Assembly: GCA_037143235.1 (NCBI GenBank)
Contig: JBAWZC010000001.1
Coordinates: forward strand, 65,132-129,131
From: Candidatus Berkelbacteria bacterium
Lineage (GTDB): Bacteria > Patescibacteriota > UBA1384 > XYA2-FULL-43-10 > 1-14-0-10-43-13
Reading direction: 5' to 3'
Length of the DNA stretch: 64,000 nt
Under the pieces are notes generated by a model. It saw nothing but the letters and a program-made list of their open reading frames with translations, searched no databases and had not been told where the DNA came from. How positions within the stretch are numbered: position 1 is the first letter of the stretch; each line of letters opens with the position of its first letter. The position numbers were made by a program, and so were the translations under genes. Shown in pieces: positions 45,911-46,130 of this stretch.

Positions 45911-45950
45911 TGGTGCCGATGGTCAGAATTGGACTGACGACACAAGGCCC
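45911..45950 (-). pseudogene. 3' half of a split tRNA-Phe paralog (..CCTTGTGTCGTCAGTCCAATTCTGACCATCGGCACCA)
   Basis: T-arm + acceptor CATCGGC-ACCA pairs with 5' half at 46100-46130 (GCCGATG). Confidence 0.55.
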
Positions 45951-46008
45951 CGAAAAACAAATCTTTGATTTGTATCGGGGTAAAATTTTCAACTTGCCCC
46001 GTAAAAAT

Positions 46009-46083
46009 TGGTGCTCGGGGTGAGAGTTGAACTCACGACACAAGGATTTTCAGTCCTCTGCTCTACCGCTGAGCTACCCAAGC
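46009..46083 (-). tRNA. tRNA-Phe(GAA), CCA encoded
   Basis: GCTTGGG-TA-GCTCAGCGGTAGAGC..GAGGA-CTGAAAA-TCCTT..GTGAGTTCAACTCTCAC-CCCGAGC-ACCA. Confidence 0.88.
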
Positions 46084-46099
46084 CAATTTTTTTTACGGG

Positions 46100-46130
46100 G
46101 TCCTCTGCTCTACCACTGAGCTACATCGGC
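46100..46130 (-). pseudogene. 5' half of the split tRNA-Phe paralog (GCCGATGTAGCTCAGTGGTAGAGCAGAGGAC)
   Basis: Ends in anticodon stem; followed by CCCGTAAAAA.. inverted-repeat arm. Confidence 0.55.

Follow-up and report, generated by a model that had tools for sequence, protein, structure and literature searches.

A resident tRNA-Phe gene on the minus strand of the window (the whole stretch of Berkelbacteria DNA analysed here, 64 kb) was found to be split into two parts, 46130-46100 and 45947-45911, by an insert that carries a second, complete gene for the same tRNA. The arrangement is on balance probably a case of insertional replacement, in which a small, non-coding mobile cassette ousts the resident tRNA-Phe in a homing-like manner.

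All elements described in the initial annotation, an intact tRNA-Phe(GAA) lying inside a split tRNA-Phe, were present on the minus strand. The outer (resident, O-type) 5′ half (GCCGATGTAGCTCAGTGGTAGAGCAGAGGAC, 46100..46130) comprises the acceptor 5′ strand, the D arm, the 5′ strand of the anticodon stem and C32, and the outer 3′ half (CCTTGTGTCGTCAGTCCAATTCTGACCATCGGCACCA, 45911..45947) comprises the 3′ anticodon-stem strand without U39, the variable loop, the T arm, the acceptor 3′ strand and ACCA. The latter fragment had been drawn as 45950-45911; positions 45947-45911 are indeed a tRNA half, but the preceding GGG (45950-45948) is part of the insert's second hairpin. The outer acceptor strands GCCGATG and CATCGGC pair perfectly, and the acceptor of the inner tRNA differs from them (GCTTGGG/CCCGAGC). 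By comparison with intact orthologues, the insertion site was placed within the anticodon loop, where the insert (152 nt, 46099-45948; about 150 nt by the earlier estimate) replaces exactly TGAAAAT, corresponding to U33-U39 of the resident tRNA-Phe. A search within the window matched the outer 5′ half to the inner tRNA at 24/25 bases (E 8.6e-07). When TGAAAAT was restored between the outer halves, ARAGORN called a tRNA-Phe(GAA); the halves joined without TGAAAAT were not called, and intron mode applied to the composite found the inner tRNA alone. Because the anticodon is irrecoverable from its two halves, the resident outer gene is dead, and the inner tRNA-Phe is presumably the working tRNA-Phe of the cell.

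In order, the insert comprises a leader of 16 nt, the intact tRNA-Phe(GAA), a trailer whose sequence pairs with that of the leader, and then a linker and a further hairpin. The leader (CCCGTAAAAAAAATTG, 46084..46099, minus strand) starts with CCCGTAAAAA, forms the left end of the cassette and pairs with 46008-45997 in the minimum-free-energy fold, as the 5′ arm of helix P1. The inner (I-type) tRNA-Phe(GAA) at 46009..46083 is complete, with CCA encoded (called by ARAGORN; Rfam tRNA model 69.5 bits, E 8.6e-14), and is followed on the same strand by the trailer (ATTTTTACGGGG, 45997..46008), which ends with TTTTTACGGGG and provides the 3′ arm of P1. The arms around the inner tRNA, already noted as inverted repeats, match at 11/11 bases, and the trailer core TTTTACGGGG is also the 3′ arm of a hairpin motif seen upstream of GIY-YIG genes. 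A linker (CAAGTTGAAAATTTTA, 45981..45996), single-stranded in the predicted fold, separates P1 from hairpin P2 (CCCCGATACAAATCAAAGATTTGTTTTTCGGGG, 45948..45980), the previously reported second hairpin, which is the right end of the cassette. The two cassette ends are mutually inverted, with TTTTTCGGGG at the end of P2 matching CCCCGTAAAAA at the left end in 10/11 bases. The non-tRNA part of the cassette amounts to 77 nt. No known RNA family was recognized in the insert, the one Rfam match being to YrlA at chance level (E 8.5).

For comparison, 108 other loci were fetched (referred to below by L numbers); all sequences were from metagenome assemblies. In eight related Berkelbacteria loci the orthologous place is occupied by an uninterrupted copy of the same tRNA-Phe allele, with the acceptor stem GCCGATG/CATCGGC and the gene order of the window, and these loci represent empty sites (L094, L095, L096, L098, L099, L101, L001 and L006). 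The outer halves of the window match the uninterrupted tRNA-Phe of L099 and L101 at 31/31 (5′) and 36/37 (3′) positions, and the 5′ half is also identical (31/31) to the intact genes of L094, L095 and L096. The flanking fragments had been proposed to be tRNA halves, which is borne out by their near-identity to these eight intact genes; the split gene, which had been taken for a paralog, is instead the resident orthologue. At this locus tRNA-Phe is single in all relatives examined, with no tandem copies. C55 in the outer T loop (TCCAATT) was considered as a mark of decay and discarded, C55 being present also in the intact tRNA-Phe of L094, L099 and L101.

A second filled site was found in L091, where a homologous cassette with the same order of parts lies at exactly the same position, both junctions being identical to those of the window. 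The conserved block runs from +1 of the outer gene to its CCA, and beyond these limits no alignment could be made. Within the cassette, 13/16 bases of the linker and hairpin P2 are kept, and helix P1 forms again, with a different sequence adjoining the tRNA. Both composites were predicted to fold as one cloverleaf inside another (z −5.0 in the window and −3.4 in L091), the anticodon stem opening into a three-way junction, and P2 appears in both folds. Both cassette copies found, one in the window and, among the 108 loci, that of L091, lie in tRNA-Phe. When the outer halves of L091 were compared with the uninterrupted tRNA-Phe of L098, 67/68 positions agreed; the one that differs is C32 at the left junction, which is T in L091. 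The flanks of the L091 and L098 loci are homologous.

Phylogeny was based on one gene, ComM, which adjoins the locus, is linked to it and is 74% identical between the window and L091. L091 and L098 were grouped in 100/100 bootstraps, as were L091, L098, L099 and L101, the last three of which have the intact gene; the window and L091 were sisters in 0/100. With two filled and eight empty sites, occupancy of the same site thus disagrees with the phylogeny, and the nested loci are not monophyletic by ComM. The cassette is regarded as mobile because a homologue with the same junctions occurs in a lineage whose nearest relatives keep the uninterrupted gene. Since the outer halves are in each case the host lineage's own, undecayed allele, the cassette entered the two lineages separately and, by all appearances, recently, and since the non-tRNA parts of its two copies are only about 87% identical, the cassette lineage should predate both insertions. 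The lack of decay in the outer halves could also mean that selection acts on them.

L089 and L090 have a resident tRNA-Phe to which the inner tRNA of L091 is identical (75/75) and that of the window nearly so (74/75); the two inner genes match each other at 74/75. The comparisons of outer and inner genes identify the former as a resident inactivated not long ago, and the latter as a transplanted allele, which in other Berkelbacteria is the ordinary resident. An exact search with the 3′ end of the inner tRNA returned nothing from GTDB representative genomes or IMG/VR, and the flanks of resident I-type genes (L089, L090 and L093) did not align with the cassette leader or trailer. Phage were considered as a vector and rejected: IMG/VR gave just five weak GIY-YIG relatives (35-45% identity), and the cassette junction patterns were absent from its viral contigs.

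Downstream of the nested gene, all features lie on the minus strand. Directly after the outer CCA is a hairpin, CGTAAAAATCGAG..CGAGATTTTTACG (45877..45910), which is part of a conserved GIY-YIG leader and also follows the uninterrupted tRNA-Phe genes of L001 and L006; the leader contains a further hairpin motif, CCCGTGG..TTTTACGGGG (45844..45873). The gene itself (45475..45738, 87 aa) is of the UPF0213 or prokaryotic SLX1-like minimal type, consisting of the GIY-YIG domain alone in about 85 aa (Pfam GIY-YIG E 1.3e-16; PDB matches 1zg2, E 9e-15, and 1ywl, E 4.7e-10; SLX1, E 5.5e-05). It is followed by tRNA-Cys(GCA) (45399..45472), which starts 2 nt after the stop codon, by tRNA-Gly(GCC) (45317..45390), the last gene of a presumed operon, and by a terminator-like hairpin and T run (45290..45308); the Pfam match and the ARAGORN calls agree with the order first reported, a GIY-YIG gene and then tRNA-Cys and tRNA-Gly. 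A strict sigma-70 scan of the gene strand over 45250-46350, leader included, found no promoter-like site, a result that is uninformative for this phylum. NCBIfam gave no match for four GIY-YIG proteins or a LAGLIDADG-like ORF (40793-40161), and PHROGs none for the two GIY-YIG proteins run against it. Downstream of the uninterrupted tRNA-Phe of L001, L006 and L007 lie the same GIY-YIG gene and leader hairpins; the gene is absent in L091 and in L094-L101. Because it stands beside intact alleles (L001, L006) and is missing beside the nested gene of L091, the GIY-YIG gene is a neighbour and lies outside the Phe cassette.

Other tRNA genes are broken in comparable ways. The tRNA-Leu(UAA) locus of the window (36036..36690, minus strand) contains, in order, the resident 5′ part to nt 38 (36690-36633), a GIY-YIG ORF (36633-36391), a live tRNA-Leu(UAA) (36389-36305) and, beyond a spacer, a hybrid copy that is dead (36178-36036); the 3′ end of this copy pairs with the outer 5′ end. 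The nested logic of the Phe locus had been equated with that of this locus; the idea of a family holds, but the construction is different, the Leu locus having the GIY-YIG ORF inside and a hybrid right-hand junction. Elsewhere, further tRNA genes are interrupted at the anticodon loop beside a live copy: a tRNA-Cys with a tRNA-Cys nested in it in L096, half a tRNA-Cys in L098, a tRNA-Arg in L061 and a tRNA 5′ half in L105. Breakpoints in the broken Leu, Cys and Arg genes range from nt 26 to nt 38. The proposal of a family of tRNA-targeting elements that carry a spare tRNA is supported by the L091 copy, the Cys-in-Cys arrangement of L096 and the Leu locus. Relic and partly duplicated tRNAs abound in these clusters. 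Clusters with anticodon-loop breaks (Cys, Leu, Arg) are rich in small SLX1-like GIY-YIG genes, 60/84 GIY-YIG genes have a tRNA within 300 nt at a surrounding tRNA density of 0.29 per kb, and the hairpin motif CCCGTGA..TTTTACGGG occurs near GIY-YIG genes in both orientations. An RNA-related role has been proposed for minimal SLX1/UPF0213-type GIY-YIG proteins (PMC1564403).

For the movement of the cassette, we infer the following route. The DNA of the resident anticodon loop would be cut by an endonuclease from among those crowding these tRNA clusters, and the break would be repaired from a cassette-bearing allele acquired from a relative, the two tRNA halves serving as short homology arms. The filled allele would then be without the target and would still supply tRNA-Phe. 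In expression of the composite, the resident promoter and 5′ half would most likely act as a leader, from which RNase P would free the inner tRNA. Several findings count against this route: just two cassette copies were found, both within tRNA-Phe; the cassette is non-coding, with no protein and no nuclease tied to it, and the neighbouring GIY-YIG gene adjoins uninterrupted alleles as well and is missing at the nested gene of L091; the GIY-YIG proteins here, being minimal, lack a DNA-binding domain, differ from the I-TevI/Seg type and have a proposed RNA-related role; and the homology arms measure just 31 and 37 nt.

A broader reading, which we put forward tentatively and hold to be possible but doubtful, is that these loci belong to an undescribed class of selfish elements, in which hairpin-framed cassettes with a complete tRNA would target, by homing, the anticodon loop of the resident gene that serves the same amino acid; insertion would destroy the resident and leave its promoter to the cassette. 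Mobilization would occur in trans, by SLX1-like GIY-YIG or LAGLIDADG-like enzymes of the clusters that recognize hairpin or cruciform DNA such as CCCGTGA..TTTTACGGG; versions carrying a GIY-YIG gene (tRNA-Leu(UAA), L105) would be autonomous, and the Phe and Cys cassettes non-autonomous.

Among the alternatives, the one that survives best, although we consider it unlikely, is a non-autonomous element with hairpin ends, akin to a MITE, to a palindromic element of the IS200/IS605 type or to an integron cassette, and inserted into the anticodon loop each time by a recombinase or transposase encoded elsewhere, with no double-strand-break repair from a filled allele. The inverted cassette ends and tRNA-flanking arms, the identical junctions in two independent hosts and the hairpin motif in both orientations near GIY-YIG genes all suit such an element. 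So do the outer halves, which are wholly of host type as fresh insertion predicts; since every polymorphic arm position is of host type, copying from a filled allele and fresh site-specific insertion would leave indistinguishable products. Against it, there is no target-site duplication and seven target bases were lost, the window holds one copy and the 108 other loci none except that of L091, no transposase or integrase was found among the neighbouring genes tested, and the variable breakpoints in other tRNAs (nt 26-38) resemble break and repair rather than precise recombination.

Rather less probable is an old, vertically inherited composite kept by selection, as a processing scaffold or as a tRNA-like RNA with its own role, the intact lineages being revertants. 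The conserved block runs exactly from +1 to CCA, the identity of the non-tRNA parts persists despite unalignable intergenic DNA, the same nested cloverleaf fold is predicted in both copies, and the outer halves are undecayed, as selection on the whole would have it. Against this, the nearest relatives of L091 are intact with full bootstrap support and the window and L091 are never sisters; reversion by deletion is impossible from a composite that has no anticodon loop; and the outer RNA, having no anticodon, cannot decode. The outer T stem reads GTCAG/CTGAC in the window and GACAG/CTGTC in L091, a change that looks compensatory; it was set aside as a sign of selection, the intact L098 gene already having GACAG/CTGTC, so that the change is the resident allele of that lineage.

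A one-off local rearrangement without mobility, either a tandem triplication of tRNA-Phe with two deletions or accidental capture of foreign DNA, is very improbable. Relics and partial duplications of the kind seen in these clusters make such events conceivable, but the same junctions, leader, linker and second hairpin would have had to arise twice by accident, and the cassette flanks do not align with those of resident I-type genes. Tandem duplication with internal deletion, raised in the initial annotation as an explanation that would displace the nested reading, fails on the single tRNA-Phe of every relative, none of which has a tandem pair at the locus, and on the same-junction cassette in the non-sister L091. 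An assembly chimera of two strains with different tRNA-Phe alleles is scarcely credible: the genome is metagenome-assembled and tRNA genes are repeats at which assemblers may switch strains, but a strain chimera could not create the unique junctions and the 77 nt of non-tRNA sequence, and the structure recurs with sequence differences in the independent L091 assembly (JGI, different project).

tRNA genes are usually regarded as stable, vertically inherited landmarks. Under insertional replacement by a mobile cassette, an essential tRNA-Phe gene, single-copy as judged within 64 kb of the genome, would have been knocked out and replaced in one step by the allele of another lineage, at a fixed position and in at least two lineages. 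If general, the process would show concretely how tRNA genes can be replaced horizontally in bacteria whose genomes are very small, would account for the many tRNA fragments in these clusters, and would give the abundant small GIY-YIG genes of unknown function a testable role. For annotation, tRNA halves around a live tRNA should be taken as relics of a replaced gene and not as noise. The filled and empty alleles are ready substrates for nuclease and RNase P assays.

No description of a nested tRNA-gene arrangement was found in the literature searched, and nothing relevant on GIY-YIG with tRNA genes in candidate phyla; the locus was compared with five known kinds of system. MITEs, REP-like sequences and Rickettsia palindromic elements are short palindromic insertions that can sit inside RNA genes. 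The cassette is likewise short and non-coding, with inverted-repeat ends and hairpins; it differs in being single-copy in the 64-kb window, in lacking a target duplication and in carrying a functional gene as cargo. Integrative elements and islands reportedly use tRNA genes as insertion sites, with the anticodon-loop sublocation a frequent choice, and bring a copy of the displaced 3′ part. They are kilobases long, encode an integrase, restore the 3′ part only and leave a direct repeat. Like them, the cassette lands inside a tRNA gene and brings tRNA sequence that compensates for the damage; unlike them, it leaves no direct repeat, brings a whole tRNA and leaves both halves of the old gene as relics. 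The 152-nt insert contained no ORF, no integrase was found among the neighbouring ORFs tested, and no attL/attR-type direct repeat of the tRNA 3′ part was present, the flanks being instead the 5′ half and the complementary 3′ half of a single gene.

Free-standing homing endonucleases occur in tRNA clusters, such as SegB of phage T4 (PMC2330249). The likeness is that a GIY-YIG gene lies among tRNA genes, is present or absent at the same site, and has neighbouring tRNAs co-inherited with it, but the Phe cassette has no endonuclease gene, and the nearby GIY-YIG proteins are minimal in type, in contrast to Seg or I-TevI with their DNA-binding domain. Disrupted tRNA genes of archaea and some algae are split, permuted or interrupted by bulge-helix-bulge introns (reviewed in PMC3978253). 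They too are interrupted in the anticodon region, with a transcript predicted to form a cloverleaf with a long extra arm; theirs are rebuilt by RNA processing, whereas here seven bases including the anticodon are missing and no rebuilding would follow. The predicted folds showed no 3-4-3 bulge-helix-bulge at the junctions. Finally, group I introns have been described in the anticodon loop of Patescibacteria tRNA genes (Nakagawa et al. 2026, PMC13011429), in the same phylum and at the same target, and there too the interrupted gene is missed by standard tRNA finders. A cmscan of 35000-47500 against the Rfam group I models gave no match, with E values up to 10 allowed, the 152-nt insert is too short for a ribozyme, and its removal restores no anticodon. 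Where those genes are rescued by splicing, the rescue here would come from the second, complete tRNA inside the insert.

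The genes discussed are on the minus strand. The single tRNA-Phe(GAA) called by ARAGORN (69.5 bits with the Rfam tRNA model) lies in a 152-nt insert that replaces TGAAAAT of an outer tRNA-Phe. Read along the gene strand, the composite consists of the outer 5' half (46130-46100, GCCGATGTAGCTCAGTGGTAGAGCAGAGGAC), comprising the acceptor 5' strand, D arm and anticodon-stem 5' strand; a cassette leader (46099-46084, CCCGTAAAAAAAATTG); the intact inner tRNA-Phe (46083-46009, ARAGORN and Rfam); a trailer pairing with the leader (46008-45997, ATTTTTACGGGG); a 16-nt linker (45996-45981); a second hairpin (45980-45948, CCCCGATACAAATCAAAGATTTGTTTTTCGGGG); and the outer 3' half (45947-45911, CCTTGTGTCGTCAGTCCAATTCTGACCATCGGCACCA), comprising the anticodon-stem 3' strand, variable loop, T arm, acceptor 3' strand and CCA. 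The coordinates of the initial annotation were correct overall, except that three bases it had placed in the 3' half (45950-45948) are part of the hairpin. GCCGATG and CATCGGC, the outer acceptor strands, are fully complementary; the inner acceptor stem (GCTTGGG/CCCGAGC) differs from the outer one. With TGAAAAT restored, the outer halves were called as tRNA-Phe(GAA) by ARAGORN; no outer tRNA-Phe was called from the halves joined without it, or from the native composite in intron mode. Upstream lie ComM/YifB (46642-48177, minus strand) and a divergently transcribed small membrane-protein gene; downstream follow a hairpin-rich leader, a GIY-YIG gene (45738-45475), the two tRNA genes tRNA-Cys and tRNA-Gly, and a terminator-like hairpin. 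The protein of this GIY-YIG gene shows 100% identity to one from a Candidatus Berkelbacteria metagenome-assembled genome. A scan of the gene strand gave no promoter-like site in the 16-nt leader or upstream of the outer gene, and transcription of the inner tRNA presumably starts upstream of the outer 5' half.

Orthologous loci of relatives (L numbers denote loci fetched from related genomes or metagenomes) were obtained via homologues of two proteins, ComM and the GIY-YIG protein. In eight relatives a single uninterrupted tRNA-Phe with an outer-type acceptor stem precedes tRNA-Cys and tRNA-Gly. The empty sites of L001 and L006/L007 also have the GIY-YIG gene, with leader hairpins as in the window; those of L094, L095, L096, L098, L099 and L101 are without the GIY-YIG gene. 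The outer halves of the window are identical to the tRNA-Phe genes of L099 and L101 at 31/31 and 36/37 positions and have in common with them an unusual T-loop C55. This near-identity identifies the halves as the resident orthologous tRNA-Phe, split by insertion, and not as the paralog first proposed. U55 is almost universal in the tRNA T loop. The T loop TCCGATT, with C for U55, was read in the uninterrupted tRNA-Phe of L094 (4987-5061), L099 (5709-5783) and L101 (5310-5384), in each case the sole tRNA-Phe at the locus; the outer 3' half of the window (45911-45947) has C55 too, in a T loop TCCAATT. JGI metagenomes were scanned for tRNA-Phe with the inner acceptor stem, yielding five loci (the L092 sequence is identical to L090). 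At L089, L090 and L093 the inner-type allele is the ordinary single tRNA-Phe of the orthologous locus; therefore two resident tRNA-Phe alleles, O (GCCGATG) and I (GCTTGGG), circulate in Berkelbacteria.

A second filled site, L091, corresponding to Berkelbacteria genome CG10_big_fil_rev_8_21_14_0_10_43_13, has an I allele nested in an O allele, in precisely the arrangement of the window. Left and right junctions, leader-trailer helix, linker and second hairpin are common to both; the conserved block extends from the outer gene +1 to its CCA, and the DNA beyond is unalignable. ComM identity between the two is 74%, the non-tRNA cassette parts are only about 87% identical, and the inner tRNAs match the resident L089/L090 gene at 75/75 (L091) and 74/75 (window) positions. 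In the tree of ComM, a gene linked to the locus, L091 grouped with L098 in 100/100 bootstraps and with L098, L099 and L101 in 100/100, these three relatives all having empty sites; the window and L091 were sisters in 0/100. The intact tRNA-Phe of L098 matches the L091 outer halves at 67/68 bases, T arm GACAG-TTCGACT-CTGTC included; the single mismatch is at the left junction, where L091 has T for C32. The flanks of the two genes are also homologous. The relic halves of L091 show no decay despite a ComM identity to L098 of only 89%. The outer T stems of window and L091 differ in a seemingly compensatory way; that reading was rejected because the L098 intact gene already has the L091 version, so that the allele difference predates the insertions. 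In our reading of these alignments, the cassette lineage would be older than either insertion, and each insertion would be recent, into a host with its own O allele.

The window and L091 composites were predicted to adopt the same shape (z-scores -5.0 and -3.4), in which the outer part forms acceptor stem, D arm and T arm and the outer anticodon stem leads to a three-way junction bearing the second hairpin and the leader-trailer helix, topped by the inner cloverleaf. This predicted fold fits release of the inner tRNA via RNase P and 3' processing; the anticodon is absent from the outer RNA.

Across 565 kb of related DNA, 179 tRNA genes were each compared with their own surroundings, and about 20 of the 179 had same-strand self-fragments nearby. 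Anticodon-arm breaks beside a live copy were seen, among others, in L096, L098, L061, the tRNA-Leu(UAA) locus of the window and L105. L096 (1882-2094, minus strand) has one tRNA-Cys inside another, the outer gene being split at 34/35 with both halves kept; in L098 a tRNA-Cys 5' half to nt 33 is followed, after a 22-nt gap, by a tRNA-Cys of a different allele; and in L061 a tRNA-Arg 5' part to nt 34 precedes the live gene at a distance of 10 nt. Breakpoints are concentrated in the anticodon loop and range from nt 26 to nt 38, a spread more suggestive of breaks and their repair than of a single precise recombination site. The inner tRNA-Cys of L096 is intact and identical to that of the window, and the dead 5' half has a 31-nt hairpin inserted after nt 25. 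After the resident I-type tRNA-Phe of L090 (1960-2100, minus strand), a truncated GIY-YIG leader (CGTAAAACCGAG..TGTCCCGTGAA) is fused to tRNA-Cys, 3' of which lies a relic tRNA-Cys of a different allele with an internal deletion; these relics look like traces of GIY-YIG element loss and tRNA replacement.

The tRNA-Leu(UAA) locus of the window (36036-36690, minus strand) is a more complex nest than that of tRNA-Phe. Its resident 5' part (GCCCGAG..) ends at nt 38, directly into the ATG of an 80-aa GIY-YIG ORF (36633-36391, minus strand); then follow a live tRNA-Leu(UAA) of a different allele (36389-36305, minus strand), a 126-nt spacer whose 3' end copies the last ~15 nt of the ORF, and a dead hybrid tRNA (36178-36036, minus strand), whose 3' end CTCGGGC pairs with the 5' end of the outer gene instead of that of the hybrid itself. 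The D loops of the dead tRNA copies contain an exact 20-nt palindrome, CCTGCCTGCCGGCAGGCAGG, at 36649-36668 and 36137-36156 (two copies in the window vs none expected by chance). It is identical in L107/L108 (1862-1881), L069 (1430-1449), L035 (3026-3045) and L105 (515-534), five loci with four distinct sequences, L107 and L108 being duplicates; in all of these except L035, a GIY-YIG gene is close by and the palindrome was seen in a dead tRNA fragment or next to one. Another of the window's GIY-YIG genes has related GC-rich inverted repeats upstream of it, at 41510-41600. No tRNA was called in L105 by ARAGORN; read by eye, a dead tRNA 5' half is joined there at nt 33 to a GIY-YIG ORF, and a second 5'-half copy leads into a group I intron-like start with an HNH-type ORF.

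The tRNA cluster at 36-46 kb of the window is dense with endonuclease-like genes. Small GIY-YIG ORFs number four in the window (45738-45475, 41490-41254, 36633-36391 and 28029-27739), and three of them stop 1-6 nt short of a tRNA gene. The fourth (28029-27739) has no adjoining tRNA and lies between direct repeats of ~30 nt (27650-27690 and 28135-28170; AAGCTGATAAGC[T/C]AGTAAGTGTTTAAGCT), as if inserted together with a duplication. A LAGLIDADG-like ORF (40793-40161), whose 3' end overlaps the start of tRNA-Leu(GAG), matched phrog_4645 'endonuclease' (E 7e-33) and was below threshold in Pfam. Of 84 GIY-YIG genes at 80 loci of GTDB representatives, 60 had a tRNA within 300 nt, and tRNA density at these loci was 0.29 per kb. 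The GIY-YIG proteins are of the minimal UPF0213/prokaryotic SLX1-like type (PDB 1zg2, E 9e-15; SLX1, E 5.5e-05) and are not Seg/I-TevI-like. Dunin-Horkawicz et al. (PMC1564403) remarked that the group has no extra domains and that RNA might be its substrate.

A conserved non-coding leader precedes the GIY-YIG ORFs (window 45765-45910; L001, L006, L024, L031, L032, L034, L063, L064 and others). It contains a CGTAAA..TTTACG hairpin immediately 3' of the preceding tRNA's CCA, CACGTGGC boxes (37/51 occurrences within -200..-1 of the ORF) and a hairpin of the form CCCGTGA-[variable palindromic stem-loop]-TTTTACGGGG, of which TTTACGGG has 15/22 occurrences within -200..-1; these motifs are strongly enriched in the 200 nt preceding the ORF. 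A G-T pair in the outer stem of the latter hairpin suggests an RNA-level structure. The motif is in reverse orientation in L015 and L021, and it matched no Rfam family. The cassette arms CCCGTAAAAA / TTTTTACGGGG contain the TTTTACGGGG core, which ties the cassette loosely to GIY-YIG elements. Its tie to one particular nuclease is weak, because the adjacent GIY-YIG gene is also found beside intact O alleles and the L091 locus has none. In L059 (2274-2785), tRNA-Met, a hairpin leader, a GIY-YIG gene and the 24-nt direct repeat CCGGGTCCCGCAACCGCGAAAAAT (tRNA 3' end plus flank) occur in that order, the hallmark of T-loop insertion by a GIY-YIG element that brings a tRNA 3' end of its own; as the mirror image, L012, L034, L036, L062, L069 and L070 have a 5' fragment ahead of the live tRNA.

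We conclude with good confidence that the resident tRNA-Phe underwent recent insertional replacement by a non-coding cassette with another lineage's allele. This cassette has inserted at one common site in two lineages. A homing-like mode of movement is favoured: the anticodon-loop DNA of the resident gene would be broken and repaired from a filled allele acquired from a relative, and this allele would be immune to renewed cutting with the tRNA supply maintained. The likeliest of four alternatives is a trans-acting recombinase working on the cassette hairpin ends. Second, a selected composite RNA inherited vertically is disfavoured by the ComM phylogeny, and several reversions would be needed, which deletion could not bring about, since the composite no longer contains the outer anticodon loop. 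Independent accidents and an assembly artefact, third and fourth, are excluded in practice, since two independent assemblies agree in junctions and cassette sequence.

Full-text literature searches turned up no account of a bacterial tRNA gene lying within the remnants of another gene for that tRNA. A distinct element class mobilised by SLX1-like nucleases is conceivable, if rather improbable. Integrase-borne islands, which integrate within tRNA genes and rebuild their 3' end, are among the nearest known systems, and their defining set of features is not seen here. The same holds for the group I introns in anticodon loops of Patescibacteria tRNA genes (PMC13011429), for free-standing homing endonucleases in tRNA clusters, such as T4 SegB (PMC2330249), and for archaeal tRNA genes, which can be split or intron-containing (PMC3978253). 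The nested tRNA-Phe cassette is rated as belonging with elements that have tRNA genes as their targets and make up for the damage done there.
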